This document shows positions 1 to 59,550 of a stretch of DNA of 64,000 nucleotides, piece by piece. The notes below the pieces were generated by a model. The model was not told where the DNA came from. It saw only the letters and a list, made by a program, of their open reading frames with translations, and made no database searches. The DNA is taken from NCBI RefSeq assembly GCF_006345805.1, contig NC_043001.1:65844001-65908000 (forward strand), in the 5' to 3' direction. The number at the start of each line of letters is the position of its first letter. Positions within the stretch are counted from its first letter, which is position 1. This stretch comes from Octopus sinensis (Eukaryota). The position numbers and the translations under genes were made by a program.

Positions 1-2580
1 GAGAGGTTACACTTTCCGCTTATGATGTTGTGGGCGAGAATGAGATCACTACGGCGGCGGCGTTTTTCAAGAGAATAAAGGTCGAGCGTCCTCAGCCTTT
101 CTTCGTAGGACAAATTTTTGAGACCATGAACCATGCGGGTAGCCAGCTTCTGGACTCTTTCGAGATGCTGTATGTCTTTGAGGAGATAAGGAGAAGAGGC
201 TTGAATCCCATACTCCAATATGGGTCTCACCAGCGTGACATAGAGTGGTAGGAATATGGCTGCTGTGACCATTCCGAATGACCGTCGAATCAAGAATAGA
301 ATTCCGCGTGCTTGTTGGCAGCATGGACGCACTGGGCCGAAGGCGAAAAGGAGGAATCCATCAAGATACCTAGGTCCTTTACCTGATCGGTCCTCTCCAG
401 CAGCAGACGACCCGGCTCGAAATCAAGTTGAGTTGCAGGAGTAGAGCCGACAGGCAGATGAGAGCACTTTGACACGTTCAGACACAGGTCCCAATCGTTA
501 GACCACTTCCAAATTTGGTGGAGGCATCGACGAAGATCCTCTATATTACCGCGAGGAGCGACCAGTTTGATATCGTCGGCAAATAGAAGGGTGTGTTGCG
601 TGAGGTCGTCGGGCAAGTCATTTATGAAGACTAAGAACAACAAGGGCCCAAGCACTGAACCTTGAGGCACGCCACTGCTCGCACTGGAGACGTCGGACCG
701 CGAACCATTAACTTGGACTTGGAAGGAGCGATCTGAGAGGAAGGCACCAACCCATCGTACAATATCCGGATGGAAACTATATGCTTAAAGCTTGACAAGT
801 AATAGGCGGTGGTTTACCGAGTCAAAAGCTTTGGCAAAGTCCAGTAAAACGATGTCAACAGCATCACTATCATCGAGGATGCGCGCCACCAATTCTTCCA
901 TTACTAGTAAGTTGGTCAAGCATGATCTCTTCGGCACGAAGCCGTGTTGGGAATCAGAGATAGAGGCTGTGTTTAGGAGGTGGAGCATCATACTTTTCTT
1001 AAGGATGGTTTCGAACATCTTGCTGATTATTGATGTAAGGGAAACCGGTCGGTAGTTAAGCGGGTCTTCGCGGCTCCCTTTCTGGAAAATTGGGCAGATT
1101 ATCGCTGTTCTCCAGTCTGCAGGTATAACACCCGTCGCCAATGACATATTGAATAGTCGTGTTAAGGGCTCGCAGATGACCGGAGCCAACGCTTTGATAA
1201 CCGTGGGTGTATGCCGTCAGGGCCGTGACCCTTGTTGACATCGAGGCCTTGAATAACACGTTTGACTTCGTCCCGCGTGATGACCAATCGAAGCATTGGA
1301 GGTACCGATCTATCAAATGGAGGGGGTTCACGACCATCATCTTGTTTGAAAATAGTTGAAAAAGCCTCGGCAAATAATTGACTCTGTTGATAAGGGTCCT
1401 CAATCGATACGCCTGTTGAGTCTACCAACGTTGCAATCTGGTTGTTCAAGCTGGAATTCCGCTGGACATGGGCAAAGAAGGTTTTTGGATTGCTACTGGC
1501 ATTTGCCGCGATTTTGTATTCATAACTGAAGCGTTCTTTCTTTTCGATTTTCACGGCTCGGTCTCGTTGAGTTTTGTACACCTCAAAAGCTGCAGTCGAA
1601 TCCAGATTTTTGAATTCAGCCCAAGCAATATCTCTGAGTCGACGTTCTCGTTTAACCCTCTTCGTCACCCAGGGCTTGTGTTTCTTCCTCTTGGGAAGCC
1701 CAACGAGAACTGCCTGGTCAGTCAAACAGATTACATATGCTTTGAGGGATGACCATAGTTCGTCAACTGAGGACAACGTCATCAGGGATCGCCAGTCCAC
1801 AAGCGCGGAAGCCTCGGTTAGAATTTCAAGATTAATTGCAGAGAAGACTCTACGTGGCAGCGAAGTAGTCGTGGGCGCAAAAAAAGTTGTGTGCATGACG
1901 AACTTCAGGACCGCATGATCACTCTTGGCAAGAGGGGCGCACACAGATACGTCTGACACTGATCTTGGATAGCGGGTGTATACCAGATCTAGCATAGATG
2001 GCTGCTGCCCAGACCGATGCCTTGTCGGATATTCAACATGTTGCGATAGAAAACAATCTTCAGCCACGTCAAGAAGGGCCTGGCCGAACCGGGAAGATGT
2101 TGTACAAATTGATGTGGGCCAATCGATCGTGGGAGCGTTGAAGTCTCCTAGTACCAAACAGTCATGCGAAGCTGAAACGAATCTTATCGCTTCGAGTAAA
2201 TGAGCATCGTCCTGGGGGTCGGCAAGAGGCGGCCTGTAGACAGCCAACACGGGCAGGCAAAACTCAGATAGGCTCAGCTTGCAATAGACGGCATCGAATT
2301 TTGTTGCAGGCTGAGCATTAGTGGGTAGAATACCGCTGGACGGTTTGTGCTCAGACTTAACATACACAGCAACACCTCCACCTCGCCTTTTTCCTCTGTC
2401 ACATCTGAAAAGGACGTAGCCCTGCAGGTGGATTTCTGAGTCCTTTACTGCTGGAGTCAGCCAAGTCTCGGTGATAGCTATCACATCAGGGGAGTCACGT
2501 ATGGCCAGTGTAAATAGTTCACTGAACTTTGGGATAAGGAGCACGAGTTGGTGTAGACGATGCTGAGCTGTGAAGTCTGA
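1..2580 (-). pseudogene. ORF2 (APE endonuclease + reverse transcriptase) of the CR1-type LINE, disrupted
   Basis: Protein continues across ORFs 2481..2669, 1162..2601, 785..1189 and 290..670, with frameshifts near 2540, 1190 and 310 and an in-frame stop at 785-787. Confidence 0.9.
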
Positions 2581-3394
2581 GGGGCGGGAGTTGGGGAACA
2601 AGCAGAATAAGGGGTATCAGAGATAGCATCGTTGACGGGGGTATCAACTTCACTTCGATTTGCCCTCACATCACTTTCCCTGTCAGCACTACAGCATGGG
2701 ACCAGAGGTAGGACTTGATTATCTGTCCATCTTGGATTCGTAAACCCTTCTCTCCCATTTGTTTCCTCATCTTTAGTTCGGATATCAGGTTTCTCCGGCG
2801 AATCTCTCTCTTAGTGAGTATTCCTCGCGAAAACCCATATTGGGGTCCTCCCAGGCATGCGTCTGAGCTCTGTTCAGAAAGACTGAAGCCTCCCGATCAG
2901 AAGAAAAGATTACCCTTATTGGGCGTGGTCTAGTATCTGCGGTTGGGTTCGCTTGGAATCTTCCTAGCCGAGCGACCTTAAGGACACTGACCTTTTCGTT
3001 CACAGAGAACAATTCTCCAACCAAAATGGAAACAAAATTAATGTCATCTTTTAGGCGGTTTATGCCTGTATCACGGGTGGATTCAGCTTTACCGTAAATT
3101 ATTGCTGATCTTGAGTGGGCAAAATGTTCTCTACTATGAGCTGTGGTATTCGATTCTTCATTGAGGATTTCGAAAGGGTGGTTTCATCATAGCCATCGGA
3201 CTTATGTCGGCCTGTGGGGTCGATCGGAATGGGTTTAGTGGTCATAATTTTCCCGCCTGGTTTGGAACTGCACTGCCTCCTCTTCTTCGGTTGGGGGAGC
3301 GCCACTCCCCAGATGAACTCACATCGAGATCGTTCAGAATTGGTTGAGCAATGGCATTAATGGGAAGGACAGGTGAGGGAGAATCCAAACGGAT

Positions 3395-5596: not shown

Positions 5597-5826
5597 GTAT
5601 GTGTGTGTATATGTTTATGTGTGTGTGTTTGTCCCCCCAACATCGTTTGACAACCGATGCTGGTGTGTTTAGGTCCCCGTAAGCTAGCGGTTCGGCAAAA
5701 GAGACCGATAGAATAAGTACTAGGCTTACAAAGAATAAGTCCTGGGGTTGATGTGCTCGACTAAAAAGGCGGTGCTCCAGCATGGCCACAGTCAAATGCC
5801 TGAAACAAGTAAAAGAGTAAAAGAGT
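5187..5826 (+). mobile_element. tRNA-headed SINE(s), family A (head/body + internal microsatellite + 3' tail)
   Basis: A-box GTGGCTGTGTGGTA and B-box-like GGTTCCGGGCTCAGTCC. Body ends GGTAGACGGAAACT..CCCGTCGT, followed by (GATA)n, a second partial body, (TA/TG)n and a tail ending CCAGCATGGCC...AAGTAAAAGAG. Same family at 58932. Confidence 0.85.
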
Positions 5827-9790: not shown

Positions 9791-11623
9791 AGGAGACAGG
9801 GGAAAGTCCAAAAGAAAGCGAAGCCGGAGTAAAAAATCGCCAACAATCCACATGTAGTTATACATACATACAGAGAGAGAGAGAGAGAGAGAGAGGGAAA
9901 GAGAGAGAGTGAGAGTGAGTGAGTGTGTGAGGGAATGAGAGACAGAGACAGACAGAGACAGAGACTGATACAGAGAGACAGACAGAGACTGAGAACAGAG
10001 AGACAGATAGACATACAATCAGACAGACATAGTCAGAGGTAGAGATAAAGTGAAAGACAGATAGTAAGGGAGAGAAAGAGAGAGAGAGAAAGGGAGAGAG
10101 AAAGAGATAGAGAGAGAGAAGAGGGGAGGTATGCAGAGATGGAAAGAGTGGGTAAGTGGGAGAGATGTCGGAGAAGTGGAACACTGACACAGTAAGTCAG
10201 ATTATAATATTTATTATATGGCAGAGGGAAGCTACCCCAGAGGAGCGTACTAAGTACAAATATGGTAAGGTCCCACATATATGATATTTTATGTAGAATA
10301 TACTAGTGAACCGAGATAATAATCAAATAATTAGTAAACAAAACTCCTATGAAGTGTTGAAAAACTAAAAACAAGAAAGAGTTCACTATCATAAGTAATC
10401 TCACAGACTCACCTCTCTCTCCCTTTTCTTTCTGTCTGTCTATTTATCCCTCTCTCATTCTTTCTTCCTCCCTCTCTCTCATTTTTTCTTTCTGTCTATC
10501 TCTCTCTTTTCCTTTCTCTGTCTCCCCTCCCAACAAATTACAGTAGAGTAGAATATACTGAAGATTTCTTACACGATCAAATCCAAATGATTTTTGAGCG
10601 GTTTCTATTATCCCAAAGTTTCATCAACTGATTTTATTAGTTACCTTCTCTGTAAATATAAAAATGTTAAGCATTGTACTAATTATTGTTAGTAGAATCT
10701 CAGTTGATCAAAGTTTTACTCTTTACTGTGTTATATATTGAAGGCCTAACTATAATTAACAAAACTCCTTAATAAAAGTTTCTGTCTAAAATGGGACTAA
10801 ATGCAACGACAGAAAATAGGTATTCGTTGCCCATTTCAAAATAGTCGAGGGATGTATCGATTGCAGAATCGGTAGAATGATATTTAGCTGTGTGCGTATG
10901 TATTGAATTCAAGTCCCGTCGAGATCAACGGTGATTTTTCAATCTGTGGTTGATAAAATGTCACTTGAATACTGATATCAATTAAAGTAATTGCCTCCTC
11001 AAAGTTCTACCTAAATTACAATTGAAAATATTCCTAGACATTTTTTGATGTTAAAAACCTGTTTTGCTAGTGGTTCATCTAAGACTATACTTCAGATTTG
11101 GTTAAATACAACATAGGCATTCGGATTCAGTTCTACAGCGTACCACCTTCAATGGTTGCCTTCTCCTGCAGCCTCGGGCCTTTCAATTCCTTATGAGAGA
11201 ACAATACAAAAGCCATGTGAGTGTGTGTACGAGTGCTTACTTTTAAGTATGCTACCTAGCTGTTTCACAAATGGCTTCGAAAATATAGAAAAATATGCAC
11301 CGGTTTTAAAGTGCTGAGATCGACTAAAACACTTGATGATGATTCCTCACCATGGCCGTTGTCCAATAGGGTACTGTCAAGAGGTTGAAGCTATAGTGAT
11401 GCTCGTTTAGCAGCTGATAGTGGGAATATACATTTGTCATGCTTAATTATGAATTTCTTATGCTTTACTCTCGCTATTCCGAGTTGTCCTTCATTCTTGA
11501 ACAGTGGAAACAAACGTTTGCAGGGATTACTTACATTGGTATTGTTTGGTTTTCTTCATAGGTAATCTAATTCGGCTTAGATAATGCTTAGATACTAATA
11601 TGCTGCTTTGGAAGTTCTGAGGC

Positions 11624-11687
<64 letters not shown>

Positions 11688-11844
11688 AATAAGAATGGAT
11701 GAGCACTAAGTGGACATTCAATATGCTAGAAATAGATCACCTACGATCTACCCACAAAGAAAAAGAATGTTCTCTAGAAAATTTCAGCAAAGACCAGAAC
11801 ATTAGCGGGTAAGACAAATGAAAATATACAAAATAAAGAATTAA

Positions 11845-11909
11845 TCGTAGACTATTTTCGCCATTAACGATTTTACTTACGTAACAACGTCCGTGGCTCT
11901 TCAGTACGA
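11845..11909 (-). ncRNA. Type-I hammerhead ribozyme motif
   Basis: Minus strand reads TCGTA-CTGAAGA-GCCA...TGGC-GAAA-ATA-GTC-TACGA. Stems I and II are perfect; stem III is degenerate. Confidence 0.75.
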
Positions 11910-12404
11910 CCGTTCTAATTCAATATAATTTGCAGAGTTATACACAAGTTGTCCTCATAAAATTACACGTGTGTACAGTTCTACCGAATACATTGGGGTT
12001 ATTTTCAAATGTCCCAGCTCTGGCGCGCTAAATCCCGGAAACTGTTCTGCAGAAGATAATTCACTGCAATGAATGTTGCCGGTTAGAGAACATAATTATT
12101 CAAAATTTAAATAATTAGGGTGATAAATTGAATATTATTTTAATTAACATCAATTTAAAACCAGTGGCCTAGCATATAGAAAAACCTGAAAATTCATAAA
12201 AATTTTATTACATGCGTAATATTACATGCACTTAGATCGTAGATTATCTATTTCTAGCATGCTGGATGTCCACTTAGTGGTCATCCCTACTTATATGCAT
12301 GTAATACAATTTTCCTGAATTTTCAGATTTTTCTATATGCTACGCTACTGGTTTTAAATTGATGTTAATTAAATTAATATTCAATTTACCACCCTCATTA
12401 TTTA

Positions 12405-12457
<53 letters not shown>

Positions 12458-12530
12458 ATTTATGCTGTGAAATTAGATTTAATCCTAAATCTAATTTTCC
12501 CTGTAAGTTTGGATTTACTCCCTAATATTA

Positions 12531-12588
<58 letters not shown>

Positions 12589-12756
12589 AACAAAGATAAA
12601 TGCGATACAATAAAATTAATTATAATCGCCGGTGTACCAGTACACGCCATATATTATTCATATATCATTACATTCAAGGCGAAGAGTGCACTAGATACAC
12701 AATAGCTGGATAAATTTAGTGAGATTAAAATTAAAAACTTTTACAAACTTAGCTTT

Positions 12757-12829
12757 TCTTATACTGCAGTTTCGCCAAATTCAGTAATAAAAATAATATT
12801 TATTTACCCAGGCTGGCTCTTCAGTAAGA
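12757..12829 (-). ncRNA. Canonical type-I hammerhead ribozyme
   Basis: Minus strand reads TCTTA-CTGAAGA-GCCA-(long AT-rich loop)-TGGC-GAAAC-TGCA-GTA-TAAGA. All core nucleotides are present, with a 5-bp stem I, palindromic loop 3 and GUA cleavage triplet. Confidence 0.9.
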
Positions 12830-15800
12830 TTCCTGTTAATGATGGGAAGACCATATTAATAGACCCATGTGCGTCTATTGAAATGCTCTTTCTAAACTAT
12901 TCAAAACACTGCGCAGACTCATTATATTATATATATTATATATATATATATATAATATTAGGGAGTAAATCCAAACTTACAGGGAAAAATTAGATTTAGG
13001 ATTAAATCTAATCTCACAGTATAAATATAGTTTAAATTAGAGATAAAACCACTATTAGACAAATCAAACAGTGAAAAATATAAACCAAAACATAAAAATA
13101 AAAATAATTAATATAATATACAAAATATATAAAATATAAATTTAAAATTTAAATTATTTAAATTTAAATTTTTTTATTTATATTTATAAATTTTTATATT
13201 TTTTAAATTTCAAATTAATAAATTTTTAAACTTTTAAACATTTTTTTTTTTTAGATATGTATAACTATCAAAAAGTATTAAAAAGTTTAATATAAGATAA
13301 TAAGTAAAACCATTACGTACGTTTAATGGCCATACCTAATTCAAATTACAATAATTTAAATTCAATTAAAAATTCGAATTATAGGTATAGTCAATCTTCA
13401 GGTTAAATAAATATGCAAATATATTTAAACAATATTTTTTAAGAAATAAATAAAATAATAATTTTTCTCATAAAATACTCTATTATCAAACTAGAAACCT
13501 TAACGATTAGGATTATGTCATACAATCCAATTATAATGTTAACTATTAATTTTTAAAGCAAAAATAAATAGAAAATGTATTTATATATTCAGATATAATA
13601 TGGCTTTAAAAAACATAATAAACTCACGAATAACCTAATCTCAGTTATAGTCAATATCTAATTACCTAATTATTTAACAAAAAAATAATCAGAAAAATAA
13701 TCACTATTCATATCATTAAATTTAATTTCAAATTTAAAATATTTGAATAATAACTAAATTATTATCAATAAATATATAGGAATATATATAAATATAATAA
13801 TTAAGATCTAAAATAATCTCTATCAATAAATATATATACGTATTATGAAAATCTAAATAAATTAATTATTCCATTATTACTTACGAAATATATTAAAAAA
13901 TTAAAACATTAAAAATGAAAAAGCAAATTATAAACGTATAACCTATCTTAAAAAATCCCTATAACTATTTAACGATCAATATATCTCGTTGGCTAATTAA
14001 TAACTTACAAAAGCCGAATAGTTAAGATCTAATAATGAAATAATGAAATACATATCTTCAGCAACTAAATACTTATACAATCAAATTATCAATCCGTAGT
14101 TATATAGTATCCAATAAATACCATATAACATAAATTATTAAAATATTAAAATAAATTTAATAAAAATACTTACTTAGTTTTCGAAAATCGTCTCATTAAC
14201 TAAACTAATAATAAACAAATGGAAAATTCTTTAACAATGAAAACTACGAATATATTTTATAAATGAAAAATACTACTACAAATTATCAATTGAAAATAGC
14301 TATATTTAAGCTATAATAGAACAAAGTCAACTATTAGAGATATTTATGAATATATAATATGGCTTAAAAAACATAATAAACTCACAAATATCCTTAACTC
14401 AGTTATAGTCCAAAAATTTAATTACCAAATTATTTAACTAAATAATCATTATTCATAATTTAGATTTAACACTTCTAATAATTGTAAAATATTTAAAAAT
14501 AATAACTAAATTACTATCAACAAATATAGTGATTAAAAACTAAAATTTACGCTATCAATAAATGTATAGACATATAAAGAAAAATTAATAAATTAATTAA
14601 TCCAATACTACTTACATAAATATTAAATATTAATATAATATAATTATGAGATACATTAAAAAATTAAAAATTAAAATCAAATTAAAACCAGAAACCTAAC
14701 TTTAAAAAATCGTATAACTATTAACGATCTATATATCTCTATGGCTAAGTAATATCTTACAAATAACGTAGAGTTAAAATCTAATAACTATATACATAAC
14801 TTCAACAACTAAATCATTACATAACAATCTGTATTTATATAGTATACAAAATAATACAATAAGACTTATTAAAATATTTCAAAATGTTTAAATTTAAAAA
14901 TCTTAAATACAAATAGATTAATTAGCTTTCCAAGGCTGTTTGATAAACTAAAATTTTAAAACGGAAAACGTTTTTAAGCGTTTATAAGAATACTCGTGGA
15001 ATTACGTTATTAACAGAAATAGAATAAATTGATGAAAAATTCTTTTAACAATGAAAAACTACGAATATATTTTATCAATAAAAATTGGGAATAATTGTCA
15101 ATGGAACAGCTACAGTTTATCAATAAATATAAATAGAATGAAGTCACAATTATAGAATAAAACCACTATATACTATAAGATTTATTATCAAAATAACTAC
15201 AATAAATTATACTTAATACTCAATAAATTAAATAATTAATATAACAACCAATTACTGTGTATACTCTAAAAATCTTATAAGATTTAATGAATTTATATTA
15301 AAAAAATTACGCAGTAGTAAAATTAATATAAATAAAAAATAAAAAAATAAAAAAATAACTATTAGACACATCCAAAATTAATTCAGTAGTAATTCAAGCA
15401 TTATCTATAATATGACCAATAATTAATATAAAGAAACTATATTCTAATAAAATTCATTAATAATATTGATTAAATAAACATCTAAATAAATCTACTTCAA
15501 ATATGTAGAAATACATTTCATTATTTCATTATTAGATCTTAACTATACGGTTTTGTAAGTTATTAATTAGCCAACGAGATAATTGATCGTTAAATAGTTA
15601 TAGGGATTTTTTAAGATAGGTTATACGTTTATAATTTGCTTTTTCATTTTTAATGTTTTAATTTTTTAATATATTTCGTAAGTAATAATGGAATAATTAA
15701 TTTATTTAGATTTTCATAATACGTATATATATTTATTGATAGAGATTATTTTAGATCTTAATTATTATATTTATATATATTCATATATATTTATCGATAC

Positions 15801-16264
15801 TAATTTAGTTATTATTCAAATATTTTATAATTAGATTTGAACTTAAATTTAATTATATGAATAGTGATCATTTTTTTGATTATTTTTTTGTTAAATAATT
15901 AGGTAATTAGATATTGACTATAACTGAGATTAGGTTATTCGTGAGTTTATTATGTTTTTTAAAGCCATATTATATCTGAATATATTTTCTATTTATTTTT
16001 ACCTTAAAATTTAACATTATAATTGGATTGTATGACATAATCCTAATCGTTAAGGTTTCTAGTTTGATAATAGATTATTTTATAAGAAAAATTATTATTT
16101 TATTTATTTCTTAAAAAAATATTGTTTAAATATATTTGCATATTTATTATCATTAACCTGAAGATTGACTATAACTATAATTCGAATTTTTAATTAAATT
16201 TAAATTATTGTAATTCGAATTAGGTTATGGTCATTAAACGTACGTAATGGTTTTACTTATCTTA

Positions 16265-16326
16265 TTGATTGATTGATTGATTCTAGTTTCAGCTTATGAG
16301 CTGTGGCCATGCTGGGGCACCGCCAT
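16265..16326 (-). mobile_element. 5'-truncated SINE 3' end with (CAAT)n tail, inserted in the right arm of the foldback
   Basis: GTGGCCATGCTGGGGCACCGCC plus (ATTG)n; absent from the left arm. Confidence 0.7.
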
Positions 16327-16605
16327 TTACTTTATTAAACTTACTATATTAAACTTTTTAATACTTTTTTATAGTTATACATATCTAAATAAAAAAATGT
16401 TTAAAAGTTTAAAAATTTATTAATTTGAAATTTAAAAAATATAAAAATTTATAAATATAAATTAAAAATTTTAAATTTAAATAATTTAAATTTTAAATTT
16501 ATATTTTATATATTTTGTATATTATATTAATTATTTTTATTTTTATGTTTTGGTTTATATTTTTCACTGTTTGATTTGCCTAATAGTGGTTTTATCTCTA
16601 ATTTA

Positions 16606-16675
<70 letters not shown>

Positions 16676-16799
16676 GACTGCTATTTCCAGTAAATATTGG
16701 TGCATTGTTGTACCACTATCTTATTTATACTGTAACCTGATGGTGCTTTGTTTTACTGGGAATCAATGCCACTGTATTGCACTATTTAACATTTTTTTT

Positions 16800-18200
16800 T
16801 TCTTTGCAAACTTTTTCATTGTTATCGCTCTGACAACAGCTAGGCGTTTCAGACAAGTATATACTGACATTGATGCAGCGACATTAGAGATTTTGTCTTG
16901 GTGAATCTAGCCGCTGAGGACTAATGAAATTTACGTTAACAAACGTAATTTGGTAAGTTCGAAATCTAGATCCTAGATTATCCACATCTGGGTTGTACAT
17001 GTATTAAATGCTCTTCCTACAGGTAAGAGGACATTTTTTTATGTTCGCCGCCCGCTAACATTTTTACCAGTGTATATATACAGTGAAGATTTACTTGACG
17101 CTACCTTCTGTCTTGAAACTGGATTATTTGAACCATTTCGTTAGCCAACGTAGCGTCCAACCACCACCCTCGATTATACGGGGGCTAGTTAAGAATATTT
17201 CTGCAAGAATCTCTAGATTATCTGCTAACTATAGAATCTTCGAATCTCATGCAACTTATTATAATGCTGCTCAAGCTAGGGCTGGGTACCGTGAAAAATT
17301 CAATATAAACAAGAAGCAGGCATACACAACGCTGGTAATTCTTCCAACTGTGATGCACACTGTATACCACCACAACATTACCGCTTGAGAACTCAGATAA
17401 AGAATAGAGGCCAGAAAGAATTGGTCATATCAATGAACTACCAACGAAAACTCAGAGACACACACGACATAATAATTAATCTGCTTGTTCCAATTCTGTA
17501 CAACATACTCGATCAAATAATCCTAACAGATATAGGAATTAGGTTGCCCTCAAGTTCAACTCGATTTTCGGTTTGCATGTTTCAACCAAGATCACTGGAA
17601 ATTTTTTTGTTGCTGTGGACAAGTGTTTTCCTAAATCTAATCGGTATCATGCTAAATTTAATCGACACACCGTGAAGGTATCCTACGCCAACTTCGCTAG
17701 TTTAGAGCGGGCTATACATCACATAAACAATAGCAAAATGCGGCAAAGGTTTAATAACTCACTTACTGGATCTAGCGAACATTTGCATCTAAATACCAAC
17801 TACGATCAATTTGTAGTAGTAGAAATAATTATGATAGAGCTAGCACGGTAACAACACCTGTAAATGCTCGTGCAGATAAATATCAAGATGTTCTTAGCTG
17901 AATCTCTGTATGAGTACAAATTTTGTATATAAATGTACAGTGCACACAACGGGAGAGCTCTATGTTTACATTGGGCAGACGGCTGATTCATTTAAGAATC
18001 GTTATCGTAACTATGTTGCCAGCTTTAAGACAATCAATAATCGACATTCAACATCTTTGGCAGATTTTGTATGGCGACTGAAGCAGGATAAAATGAAGTA
18101 CAGCAATACCTGGTCCATGGTAAAGTATGCGAAACCATATTAGACAATTAATAGGAGATGTTGTCTCTGCTCCAAAAAATCCCTGTCTATTCTGCAGGAC
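16800..18200 (+). mobile_element. Penelope-like element, deleted/decayed (RT thumb + C-terminal GIY-YIG endonuclease)
   Basis: PPSIIRGLVKNISARISRLS...YYNAA; VDKCFPKSNRYHAKFNRHTVKVSY; FVYKCTV...YVYIGQTADSFKNRY...STSLADFVWRLK...CCLC. Confidence 0.88.
16904..16979 (+). ncRNA. Degenerate hammerhead motif in the PLE 5' repeat
   Basis: AATCTAG-CCGCTGA (2 changes from CTGATGA)-GGACT...AGTTC-GAAAT-CTAG-ATC-CTAGATT. 7-bp stem I and palindromic loop 3. Confidence 0.65.
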
Positions 18201-18207
18201 TAATTGG

Positions 18208-18445
18208 GAGACCCCCTTCGATCATGAATGAACATGGGATTGCACCTGGAAAGTTACCCTCCGAGGTACAAATCCGGGCAAGGTTGTTTGTGGAAGGCCA
18301 GCAGTCGCCCATCCATACCAGCCTCCCCTCTCCACATCACTGATGTTATCCAAGGGAAAGGCAAAGGACGATACAGCTTGGCACCAGTGATGTCGCAACT
18401 CATTTCTACGGCTGAGTTAACTGGAGCAACGTGAAATAAAGTTTT
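18208..18445 (-). mobile_element. SINE family B, 5'-truncated (RTE-like 3' tail)
   Basis: Near-identical to 23270-23500. Confidence 0.75.
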
Positions 18446-18610
18446 TCACCCCTAAATATTTATAATTGAATATAAATTCCTTAGTTACTATTATTTATTA
18501 GTTTCTTTTGCATATTCTTAGTTTATGCATTTGTATGCAAATATAGTATTGGTATATCCCATTTATGTTCATTAGAAATTAAATAAATAAAGAATTTTGA
18601 CGTGTATGAA

Positions 18611-22533: not shown

Positions 22534-23198
22534 CGAGGGGAAGTCAAAAATTATCTGCACTTTCGCCATAACATATCTTTATTATTGTCACACTGATTTC
22601 TGCGCATGCGTGTTTATAGTTGGTACTATTGTGGTCACGTGATCGAAGTTTGATCCTGACCATGCCATTTTTCTTTCTGGCTTTCCAGTGTAAGCATGGC
22701 CGCTCCACTAACAATGTGCACCAAAGAAGAACAGAGCAGTGATCCGAGAGATGGTAATGGTGAACCGGTTCACCATTACCATCTCTCGGGCTTGCTGAAT
22801 CTTCTCGTCAGTAGTGGAGGTTGACTGCCGTCCTTCTTCCTCTTCGTGCGTCACGCTTGTCCGACCACTTTTAAACTTCCCAATCCACCCCTACACACTT
22901 CTACGCGGTAGTGCACTGTCCCCGTGTTGTACTAAAAGCATCCGATGAATTTCAGCACCCGACACACCTTCCGACTAGGGAGTCAGATCACTGCTCTTTG
23001 TTCTTCATTGGTGCACATTGCTAGTGGAGCGGCTATGCTTACACTGTAAAGCCAGAAAGAAAGATGGTGCGATCAGGCTCAAATTACGACCGTGAGACTA
23101 AAATAGTACTAACTATAAGCACGCATGCGCAGAAAGCAGTGTGACAATAATAAAGATATGTCATGGCGAAAGTGCGGATAATTTTTGACTTACTCTCG
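22534..23198. mobile_element. Non-autonomous mariner derivative built from two head-to-head 5' ends
   Basis: TA|CGAGGG...CTCG|TA termini and ~210-bp inverted arms. The minus strand encodes a mariner N-terminus (MCTNEEQRAVI..AEIHRML..GRTSVTHEE..GR.ST). Confidence 0.9.
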
Positions 23199-33524: not shown

Positions 33525-33939
33525 ATTAATAGATATCGCCAAGCTAATATGGCAGTCCAGAAATATAGCACGAATGCTGCCGTTGATTAACTCCAAGAAG
33601 CCATAGTCTCTAGCTTGCTATGTGACACACGAACCTGTGTCCATTATAACCTTCGAACAGGGGAGGTCAGCCGCTTCCCCTTGCTGGTCAGGCATCTGCA
33701 GACATGTTTCAGGGTATTTGTCCTGCTCTGCATTGATAAGGGACAAATACTCTGAAGCATATCTGTAGATGCCTGACCAGCAAGGGGAAGCGGCTGACCT
33801 CTCCTGTTCGAAGGTTATAATGGACACAGGTTCGTGTGTCACATAGCTAGCTAGAGACTATGGCTTCTTGGAGCTAATCAACGGCAGCATTCGTGCTATA
33901 TTTCTGGACTGCCATATTAGCTTGGCAATAACTATTAAT
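33525..33939. mobile_element. 415-bp near-perfect palindrome (MITE/foldback, possibly Academ-type)
   Basis: ~199-bp inverted arms around a 17-nt loop, about 8 mismatches; termini TTAA|TAG...CTA|TTAA. Confidence 0.8.
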
Positions 33940-36469
33940 GATATATAAATATTTAGTAAGGAAGTTAACAAATCTTCTCTAAACTGCCGTGGATTGACTT
34001 CATTTAGTATATGGCCCAATTATATTGATTTTCTTTGTACTTTTGACGTTCATACCTTTCTGAAACATATTAGTATGGAAAAAATAAATAAAATTAATTC
34101 AACCAGCAAAAAATAAAAAAGAAAGAAAGAAAGAAAAAGAAAAACGAAAACGAAAAACTGTCTGAAAGTCGCCTTCTCGAGAATTTATACCTTAACTTTA
34201 ACAGTTTATATCGATGCCCGATTATTTTATATATTTACAATTCGTTGCTATTTCGTGTCTGTATCAAATCATTCTTAGGTAGTTCTCTTACAGCAATAAT
34301 TTTATATAAGCATATAAATAAGTGATTTAAACATAATATAAGTAATAATTTCATCAGATGATCTTTTAACAATCTCACACTTCTAAAGCAAACTAAACAT
34401 GTCATCAGTATTATTATACCCAAACAAAAGAGTAGAGAGACGAGAAATTCACCAGACATTTGACACACTGAAAAAAATAACCTACCTGTCAAGTTGGGGT
34501 AAACAGCATGTTTACTGAATAACAAGTCTCATTCAAATCTTCCTACTTCGAGGCTTAGGACTCATTAACAAATTTAATTTGTAACAACTGTGGACAGGTG
34601 CAAGAAATCAAAAACTTAATTTAGCTATTTCTATTGAATATATATCCAGGAAGATTTAGTTCATTTCATGATAACATCATCAGCCGCTATTCGTTATAAT
34701 TTGAAAACTAATTACATTTTGGCCACCTTCAACATATTGAAACATATATCAATAACCTTTGCAGAATCTACTTTGGCTTTTATACTTTCATGCTGAATAA
34801 AATAATGCCAATTGTGTACTAATTGAAAATATCCATGTTCCAAATTTAAGGCCTTGCACTTACGTTAGGTATCAGTCCTTACCTAAAGTTCCTACAAGAC
34901 TCGTTAGTTTCTATACTACAAATTTTTATTTCAAAGATAGAACAGGGCAACGAGGGAGCTTCTGAATAGTTGCTACAATTACTAACAAATATCTCCCTCA
35001 ACCTTCTATTTCCTGAAATTGCACATTCAATAATGTACTAGCGCTGCACAAAACCTGAAGAAGAAAAAAAGACAGAATGGTCAAGTCTGGAATGTCTTTT
35101 AGATCTCTTGAGTTACGGTTGATATGAAGTTAAACAAAAACAAAAATAGAATGTTGGATATGTTTTGTCTTTGTTGTTATTTACTCAATGTGGTGCTTAC
35201 CAATGAAGAAAACATCTATTTTGTATTGGAAGTTATTTTTAGTGATATAATTCTTTGCATTACAGCCTGGCGTTCATTTCACATAACAGTAGATGTTTAC
35301 GAGATCCCATGGTTGGAAATGGCGCAGACATTGCTTCTAGCATCGTAGTTTTTGCTTCTATCTAGTACAATCATTTAATCTCGTCGCTAAAACATTTCTT
35401 AAGTTCAGATATAATTAACTTAAAGCTAAAATCCAGGATCGTTTTTTACATCTAACTGCTTTAAATAAACTTTTACACACCAGACTAGAAACAAATTTCC
35501 TCTCTGAGGCGATTTGTAACATAAACAAGAGTCACTTGAAAACCTGTGTTGTTTTCCCTAATGAAATATTAAAGATATTGCATGCAATAACATGAATGTG
35601 GTCTATAAATTATGTGCAGACAGGTACAGACAAGTTGAAAGTAATTTAATACAATACCGGAATTATAATGTCAAGTTTGTATGGACACATATAAATGAAT
35701 ACAAGTGGCTGTTCGATTCGTATTGTAAAGATATATAATGTACACACATAAATACAAAGAGAGATACATATATAAACACATAGACACACACTTACACACA
35801 CATGCACATATATTCATAAATTCCTATTCTCAACCAAGTTACTTTAACGTCGTCTTTAACGTTTCTACTTTTACTAACTTGGTCAGGTCACTGGTTATTT
35901 TATTTAATAGATAGAAAAGGAAGTGACTGTGAGCTTTCTGCAGGGATTAGTGGCAACGACGGAATAATAAATCACGGCTCGTGGATTACCATCAGACCAA
36001 TGCTGGCAACAAGAAAGTAGACCCTTTTAAAGGTGCCTGACGGTGACATGGTATGGTAAGCTGAGCGACGGATTAATCTACTACCCTAAAAATGTCAAAG
36101 AACATTCGACTGCTTACAACACCGTTTCTGTTTACCTAAGTAATAGGCTGACAGAGGCTGTGCTAGACATTAGATAAAAGTCGTATGCAATGGAATGCTG
36201 GCAACAAGAAAGTAGACCCTTTTAAAGTAGACCCCAAACCAAGCGATTTCAAAGTGAGTATTTTATCACTACGGTATATTAACCTCTATGTAATCAATTG
36301 CATTAAAATACTGATTTCAAATTTTGGCATACGGCCAGCAATTCCAGGAAGGGAACAAGTCAATTATATCGACACCAGTGCTCAACTGGTATATGTTTTA
36401 TCGAATACCCACCAACAAAGCCTATCTGGGTCGACTGTACAGATCACAGACTTTTGCTCTGTTTAGTTG

Positions 36470-44657: not shown

Positions 44658-44694
<37 letters not shown>

Positions 44695-44696
<2 letters not shown>

Positions 44697-44973
44697 CACA
44701 AAGTAAGTTAGGGGTTATAGGTGTAACCCACTAAGGGATAGTATTTATCCAATATACTGTTGGTAAAGTACCCAGATTCTTAATACATAAATGTTTTTAA
44801 TAGCAATGCAATTAACTCATTTATTGTATTAAACGGGTGAAGGTAAAGAAATATTTTACCGTTAATTTATAATACAAATAAGAAAATGGAGAAACAAATT
44901 TAGTTTGTTCATCAACTTTCGGATATTAGAATGTTGGATTATTTATTCATTTAACAAAATGAGAACCTTAATA

Positions 44974-45016
<43 letters not shown>

Positions 45017-45299
45017 ATATAACACAAAGTAAGTTAGGGGTTATAGGTGTAACCCACTAAGGGATAGTATTTATCCAATATACTGTTGGTAAAGTACCCA
45101 GATTCTTAATACATAAATGTTTTTAATAGCAATGCAATTAACTCATTTATTGTATTAAACGGGTGAAGGTAAAGAAATATTTTACCGTTAATTTATAATA
45201 CAAATAAGAAAATGGAGAAACAAATTTAGTTTGTTCATCAACTTTCGGATATTAGAATGTTGGATTATTTATTCATTTAACAAAATGAGAACCTTAATA

Positions 45300-45301
<2 letters not shown>
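44695..45301. repeat. Direct duplication of a 281-bp unit separated and flanked by (TA)n
   Basis: 44695-44975 and 45021-45301 read as identical. Confidence 0.95.
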
Positions 45302-45341
<40 letters not shown>

Positions 45342-45415
45342 TATAATTCAATACATATAAGATAAGAATACAAATGATAAAAATCATATAAATTATTGAA
45401 ATCATTAAAATCACT

Positions 45416-45547
45416 TCTTCCAGCTGTTTCAGCCTATGGTTAAAAGTAGTTATTTTAATTTTTATTGCCTATAGTTGTCAACATATTGAGGTTATAGGCA
45501 TTTAAAAATAGGGTACTTATATATATAACCATAGACCTCGTCAGATG
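45416..45547 (-). ncRNA. Hammerhead motif with very long stem II, cleavage triplet mutated
   Basis: Minus strand reads CTGACGA-GGTCTATGGTTA...TGCCTATA...TATAGGCA...TAACCATAGGCT-GAAAC-AGCT-GGA-AGA. Confidence 0.7.
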
Positions 45548-45835
45548 TTATAAGGAACTTTAAAAATATTAATATTAATACATTAAACATGATACACGTA
45601 TTATTTAATATATATTAAAAATATGAACAAATATCCATATAGACATATACATATACATATATACACATATACATACATTAGTAGAATGTATATACTTTTA
45701 CGTGTGTAAAATACATAAATAAATACAATTAAACAATAGGTCCAAGTAAGTATACCATTCGTCATATACATATATATACATATATACTGGAACATATAAA
45801 CACGTCTATGCTTAAGACCACATAAATAATAATCA

Positions 45836-59347: not shown

Positions 59348-59550
59348 TGTGTCTGTGTTTGACCCCCCAACATCGCTTGACAACCGATGCTGGTGTGTTT
59401 ACGTCCCCGTACGTTAGCGGTTCGGCAACAGAGAACGACAGAATAAGTACTAGACTTACAAAGAATAAGTCCTGGGGTCTATTTGCTCTACTAAAGGCGG
59501 TGCTCCAGCATGGCCACACTCAAATAACTGAAAGAAGTAAAAGAGAGTAA
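58932..59550 (+). mobile_element. Family A SINE, full length, with internal (TG)n and duplicated tail
   Basis: GTGGCTGTGTGGTAAG A-box, GGGTTCAGTCCC B-box; tail repeated at 59160-59292 and 59340-59550. Confidence 0.9.

Follow-up and report, generated by a model that had tools for sequence, protein, structure and literature searches.

A dumbbell-shaped block with a hammerhead motif in Octopus sinensis is likely a mosaic of abundant repeats in a TA microsatellite

How a hammerhead ribozyme motif came to lie between long inverted repeats, within one block of non-coding DNA, is the question raised by a locus of Octopus sinensis. The block spans positions 12451–16606 of the stretch of DNA that was analyzed (64,000 nt; hereafter the window). 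The initial annotation described it as a circularly permuted dumbbell, i.e., a single 4.16-kb ribozyme element integrated from a circular or concatemeric rod-like intermediate. Our analysis reproduced the order and the coordinates of its pieces (f1, f2, a solo copy of f1, a hammerhead-bearing unit and the (TA)n tracts). The observation was thus largely right, while its interpretation is mostly replaced here: the block is likely composed of several abundant repeats that lie together in a TA microsatellite, rather than being a single giant circular RNA element. The features to which the text refers are as follows.

12410–12449, no strand: (TA)n target tract of the left flank, directly after a neighboring two-armed unit
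12450–12528, plus strand: solo tail, flanked by (TA)n left and right; an inverted copy of f1; 13-bp hairpin, z -3.45
12529–12588, no strand: (TA)n tract
12589–12922, minus strand: unit U, an abundant 334-nt hammerhead-bearing repeat with no homology to the arms
12757–12829, minus strand: type I hammerhead in U, core intact
12923–12954, no strand: (TA)n tract, putative priming site of the long arm
12955–13032, minus strand: f1, a 77-nt tail by which the long arm is optionally extended at its outer end; folds as a hairpin of 13 bp, z -3.86
13033–14049, minus strand: f2, the part of the long arm common to the inverted arm; 84% A+T, no ORF
13313–13401, minus strand: decayed hammerhead-like motif, left-arm copy; more damaged, outside the descriptor
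14050–15507, minus strand: remainder of the long arm ("spacer"), with an old internal tandem of a 760–815-nt unit
15508–15514, no strand: arm-arm junction, with a 7–8-nt insert that by eye is an inverted copy of adjacent sequence
15515–16606, plus strand: short inverted arm without tail, ending at the common (TA)n-flanked end of the family
16158–16246, plus strand: hammerhead-like relic, right-arm copy; helix I only with a 4-nt bulge
16267–16343, minus strand: short repeat piece with an (AATC)n run, right arm only
16607–16670, no strand: right flank, TTT(AT)n(AG)n

The long arm measures 2.55 kb (12955–15507) and the short arm 1.09 kb (16606–15515). The divergence of the tail pair and that of the arm pair were found to be alike. 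Alignment of f1 (12955–13032) with the reverse complement of 12451–12528 gave 75 matches, 2 mismatches and 2 one-base gaps (2.6% divergence), and that of f2 (13032–14049) with the reverse complement of 15515–16606 gave 977 matches, 23 mismatches and 12 gaps (2.3%). The substitutions and gaps are scattered, a piece of ∼77 nt (16267–16343) is inserted in the right arm only, and there is no N in the window; a simple assembly echo is therefore unlikely, as had been argued initially. The one-sided piece, which resembles repeats at 5764–5809 and 59493–59533 of the window, had been called a SINE insertion. The insertion is real, and the label SINE is a presumptive one given in that annotation. The description of the spacer as diverged sub-repeats was borne out, with 14341–15156 forming a diverged second copy of the 760–815-nt unit present at 13582–14340. 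A partial-tandem pLTR arrangement of the spacer was considered and rejected, given that the second unit lacks the 3′ end (there was a weak score only, and 7 of 200 shuffles scored as high).

The block is non-coding. As annotated, no ATG-started ORF of at least 60 aa lies in 12590–17082, where stop-to-stop frames reach 95 aa. Under table 1, 12956–16606 contains no frame of at least 55 aa and no ORF for a reverse transcriptase (RT) with a GIY-YIG endonuclease. A mitochondrial or recoded ORF was rejected as well: the longest frames under tables 4, 5 and 9 have 67 aa, and the long ones under table 6 reflect the A+T content.

The case for a circle had been built on the two ends of the block, which join with a 3-nt TAA overlap and thereby rebuild the complement of the f1/f2 junction. 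The overlap holds, with its T placed at 12450 and not at 12451. What it had been taken to signify, i.e., circular permutation, does not follow from it, since any two inverted-repeat units that abut give the same rebuild. In a toy test with the order a..rc(a) b..rc(b), joining the outer ends yielded the reverse complement of the inner junction. The rebuilt junction alone is therefore no evidence of a circle.

The hammerhead of U lies on the minus strand, from 12829 to 12757. It has all the core letters and is the sole strict match in the 64 kb; the same strict search on block shuffles gave 0 matches in 30 of 30. Helices I and II are 5 bp long, cleavage is predicted after GUA near 12762, and helix III consists of 2 bp with a palindromic loop. 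The active fold of a monomer is predicted to be 6.2 kcal/mol less stable than the minimum fold, whereas pairing of two copies through helix III is predicted at -11.1 kcal/mol. The motif had been termed fully canonical, which is correct for the intact core; helix III is weak and of the predicted dimer type. As modeled, this is the usual metazoan type I form, which PMC4209133 describes as needing a second copy. An Rfam search of the 64 kb returned 0 matches at gathering score and nothing for the U hammerhead, and in 11000–18500 it gave only microsatellite-driven chance matches.

U is a non-coding unit, within the size range of 150–450 nt, with a type I hammerhead whose core is intact. No homology above that of shuffles was found between U and the neighboring two-armed unit, the arms, the spacer, the unit at 45340 or the adjacent element. 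No tandem head-to-tail copies of U are present in the window, where it occurs as a single copy. U is likely a separate retrozyme or pLTR-type monomer residing in the same microsatellite as the arms. Some high-depth contigs differ from U by about 3.5%, which hints weakly that U may be older than the arms.

The abundance of the pieces and the natural ends of the family were examined in public contigs from 4 runs (of 24 listed), which were compared with 12300–13100 only, at 85% likeness and with the (TA)n tracts skipped. Summed contig depth, which does not represent copy number, was 0.5–1.9 million on the first f2 bin and 0.2–1.3 million on the best f1 bin, with no more than 0.015–0.19 million on U; most single contigs listed in X1–X3 had a depth of about 30–100. 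All three sequences, f1, f2 and U, are abundant repeats. In each of the 4 runs, however, the arm end had 10- to 47-fold the highest summed depth of U. This far lower depth, together with the absence of homology to arms and spacer and with U's own (TA)n borders, speaks against one 4.16-kb ribozyme element.

In 4 of 4 runs, TA-like loose ends before positions 13020 and 13032 ranked with the best-supported ones. Among the matches listed, the contigs with these two ends numbered 36 and 36 in X1, 20 and 17 in X2, 38 and 18 in X3, and 29 and 13 in X6, respectively. Read-through from f1 into f2 was seen in 10 of the 32 contig pieces among the matches listed (6–11 differences each; 8 gap-free; 3 with at least 31 letters on each side), in agreement with the initial view of f1 and f2 as a single family sequence. 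Since many copies end in (TA)n at the position of the right-arm end and diverged others enter f1, f1 is optional as an extension of f2, comparable to the "tail" of Penelope. Two fixed 3′ ends and an optional tail on a single arm were therefore found in the contigs, the tail being longer than those published.

An A occupied position 13030 in 70–79% and position 13031 in 93–95% of the contig depth, and the end of the right arm at 16606 has this majority form. The TA-like loose ends and the majority A at both positions thus match 16606: at its right end the block stops where copies of this family commonly and naturally do, and not at a unique permutation point. In contrast to this majority form, f1 and the solo tail carry the same minority letters at 13030–13031 (the non-A depth at 13031 is 8–19% of the depth at 13013). 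These common letters, and a divergence equal to that of the arms, tie the solo tail to this locus and make it likely that it was derived from the same template as f1. The loose ends behind 13012 and 13029 were short and mixed, and one consensus runs back into the start of f2, so that they are ambiguous as to the recurrence of solo tails.

Both arms carry a decayed hammerhead-like motif that had been overlooked initially. It reads CUGAAGA, then a long helix II hairpin, then UUAAA where a hammerhead has GAAA, followed by a helix III that is self-complementary and by GUA. The motif lies 281 nt from the inner (tail-less) end and 358 nt from the outer (tail) end, and faces outward in both arms. A descriptor that was written after the motif had been seen matched the right-arm copy and 9 of 5000 dinucleotide shuffles (0 of 5000 with a helix II of at least 8 bp); a looser one matched four places in the whole window, including the intact hammerhead of U. 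In both arms the relic is without G12 and without a clean helix I, which suggests that the template already carried a dead or variant motif; the left copy is the more damaged. The orientation of the relic gives the probable polarity of the arms, with the 3′ ends pointing outward. With this polarity, the short arm is an inverted 5′-truncated copy joined head-to-head to the long one.

Several other features of the window were recorded. The interval 11684–12410 is occupied by a separate two-armed unit between (TA)n tracts, which comprises a permuted 538-nt unit, is abundant in public contigs, and has a minus-strand hammerhead (11904–11850) with a damaged helix III, likewise overlooked initially. 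Its short inverted arm has a tail of about 115 nt; similarity between the f1 tail and this tail (P-a) was not significant (41 of 200 shuffles). By eye, a CCCUAA-like motif lies ∼10 nt from (TA)n at three unit ends (12955–12970, 12390–12409 and 44696–44715). An AT-rich unit at 45340–45800 ends in (TA)n and contains, at 45544 on the minus strand, a hammerhead-like motif with a 107-nt helix II, GAAA, a palindromic helix III and no valid cut triplet; it is in the style of the arm relic, with no significant homology to it. At 44662–45339 there are two 280-bp units (44696–45301) that are 100% identical, with (TA)n between them, representing a very young duplication or an assembly echo. A 415-bp palindrome (93%) is located at 33525–33939, and inverted arms of 214 bp (87%) at 22534–23198, with a perfect 46-bp palindrome at 22744–22789. 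At 34683 on the minus strand the loose hammerhead descriptor was matched by a motif with a 4-bp helix II and no cut triplet, which may be due to chance. A 484-aa stop-to-stop frame at 1162–2616, minus strand, has an AP-type endonuclease domain (PF03372, PF14529) and is likely a LINE fragment.

To the right of the block, a plus-strand hammerhead-like motif (16914–16985), in which helix III is palindromic and 3 nt bulge out ahead of the core, precedes decayed frames like those of Penelope-like elements (PLEs). For the decayed element at 16671–18200, Pfam gave nothing above cut-off and a word search found no match; Atlas GIY-YIG clusters were matched at 0.88. The frames also contain what we take to be PLE-like motifs. 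The Atlas match and these presumed motifs provide a lead to a PLE-like identity of this neighbor.

What kind of event could have produced the block? The arms fit the known head-to-head layout of Penelope insertions without any circle. The Penelope-like involvement suggested initially is retained. We consider it probable that the block is a head-to-head insertion of a non-autonomous, Penelope-mobilized element with one tailed arm, accompanied by a solo tail from the same template. Under this reading, a protein-free AT-rich repeat would have been copied in by a Penelope-like RT/endonuclease acting in trans. The enzyme would nick both strands of (TA)n. One 3′ end would then prime cDNA synthesis at an outer RNA start site, giving the tailed arm of 2.55 kb (12955–15507), and the other at an inner site, displaced inward by 77 nt, giving the tail-less arm of 1.09 kb (16606–15515). 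Both cDNAs would join at about 15510, where the short insert, by eye an inverted copy of adjacent sequence, sits. An extra nick in the TA tract to the left, followed by priming at the outer site on the same template and a stop at the TA-like tail junction, would leave the solo tail, which to judge from its sequence is likely a cDNA stopped at that junction. U would have entered this microsatellite independently, earlier or later than the arms.

The layout of the block is that reported for PLEs. According to PMC8557442 and PMC3846280, PLE insertions include an inverted 5′-truncated copy placed head-to-head, with a tail at one end and with (TA)n targets. Poseidon protein, once purified, cleaves AT-rich DNA on both strands and extends them; its RT has two start sites, adjacent on the RNA and delimiting the tail, and hammerhead cleavage is dispensable for insertion in vitro (PMC11167929). 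The hammerheads of PLEs are described as having a long helix II and a small palindromic helix III (PMC4209133). Within the window, the neighboring unit at 11684–12410, which has a mirror layout and a better-kept hammerhead, supports the Penelope reading. Several points count against it: the tail is 77 nt long here vs. 30–40 nt in the PLE papers cited; neither a coding remnant of an RT or endonuclease in the element nor an autonomous partner was found in the window; no homology was seen between the arm element and the 5′ part of the decayed Penelope-like piece beside it; the relic is without G12 in both arms; and the loose ends that bear on recurrent solo tails are ambiguous.

The original proposal, a 4.16-kb rod-like RNA circle cut by its loop hammerhead and reverse-transcribed as a unit, can invoke the intact hammerhead core and arms able to pair over about 1 kb. 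It is nevertheless scarcely credible, since U is unrelated to the arms, has TA borders of its own and shows a much lower summed depth, its ribozyme is predicted to need a second copy, and the ends of the element do not coincide with the predicted cut site. The size is also at odds with animal retrozymes, whose units are given as only 170–400 nt (PMC7229834) or up to 972 bp (bioRxiv 10.64898/2026.07.22.740005). The defensible core of the idea is a circle of DNA. Here a single event would suffice: a TA fragment, carrying U as cargo or not, would be released and would prime cDNA synthesis at the outer site with each of its strands; the two cDNAs would close into a circle having a tail on either arm, and the endonuclease would cut this circle at the tail junction and integrate it. 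The solo tail begins where the right arm stops, and has the minority letters and the divergence of f1; TTT(AT)n occurs on both flanks and could be a target duplication. Furthermore, recognition by the D. virilis Penelope endonuclease requires the tail, as cited in PMC11167929, and PMC8557442 ascribes the tail to endonuclease resolution of an intermediate. A cut circle is, however, unnecessary, since the right arm stops at the end that the family ordinarily has without a tail; the junction identity is uninformative by itself, and no second example was found, an exact 22-nt arm motif having given 0 stretches in metagenome and viral contigs. We regard this route as quite improbable, and the same low probability applies to the fuller version, in which the block would be a frozen record of tail resolution, i.e., a two-tailed circle with U as cargo, cut at the tail junction and integrated whole, from a family of ribozyme-dead Penelope passengers.

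A process free of RNA was also considered. In foldback or Mutator-like DNA elements targeting (TA)n, f2...rc(f2) would be an element with long terminal inverted repeats (TIRs), rc(f1)...f1 a short MITE or a subterminal variant, and U an insertion between them. The 1-kb arms of 84% A+T with internal subrepeats and no ORF would suit such an element, TA-targeting foldback MULEs such as MuTAnT are on record (PMC4486113), and two abutting TIR units would yield the observed junction identity. The termini of f2 match when f1 is left out; f1 is, however, contiguous with f2 in other copies in the contigs, and this contiguity, gap-free in diverged contigs among the matches listed, implies that f1 belongs to the same family, which then has unequal ends here. 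Given also the outward-facing hammerhead relic in the arms and the absence of a transposase from the window, this explanation, and with it a cut-and-paste origin with no RNA step, is unlikely. A local snap-back duplication, in which repair through the self-complementary (TA)n copied f1, or a mis-assembly that joined haplotypes in inverted orientation, is very improbable. In its favor, the (TA)n tracts are palindromic, none of the public contigs crosses them (the comparison skipped those tracts), and the two identical 280-bp units at 44696–45301 show that a very young duplication or an echo exists elsewhere in the window. Against this stand the scattered substitutions, the 12 gaps and the one-sided insertion between the arms, and a window with no N; with U already in place, moreover, snap-back copying would have had to skip it.

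If the Penelope-mobilized, head-to-head reading is true, a long non-coding family with the appearance of a foldback element is a passenger of Penelope retrotransposons, mobile without an intact ribozyme, which would agree with the in vitro dispensability of hammerhead cleavage (PMC11167929), and its solo tails would provide a countable genomic read-out of the two-start-site model. Were the circle reading true instead, a very abundant, multi-kilobase AT-rich family would be filed as foldback DNA transposons in repeat libraries. In either case the block is no evidence for a giant circular ribozyme RNA. Neither this family nor solo tails were described in the literature that was consulted; the supplements of PMC11167929 and PMC8557442 and the repeat library of PMC13282606 may contain them.

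Three known systems invite comparison. MuTAnT elements, as characterized in PMC4486113, also have inverted non-coding arms inside (TA)n tracts, but their ends are symmetric with G/C termini, their TIRs are short (47 bp on average) and they have a transposase partner, whereas the block has unequal ends and arms with a ribozyme relic. The non-LTR retrozymes of animals, as outlined in PMC7229834 and bioRxiv 10.64898/2026.07.22.740005, resemble U, a non-coding, abundant 334-nt monomer with a type I hammerhead and a weak palindromic helix III; the permuted 538-nt unit of the neighbor at 11684–12410 is comparable to them as well. U is not in tandem here. The arm element is far longer than the retrozymes of these accounts and has no intact ribozyme; on both grounds it is not a retrozyme. 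The closest likeness is to Penelope-like insertions, which according to PMC3846280, PMC8557442 and PMC11167929 have head-to-head arms with outward 3′ ends, an extension on one end only, an AT-rich or (TA)n target, a hammerhead-type motif upstream of the ends and a hairpin in the tail. The block departs from them in having no ORF, a 2.55-kb arm of 84% A+T and a decayed hammerhead, as well as a solo tail in its flank, a feature absent from the PLE accounts cited here. By analogy, then, the arm element appears to work like a non-autonomous element of the Penelope-mobilized kind, rather than like an autonomous PLE.
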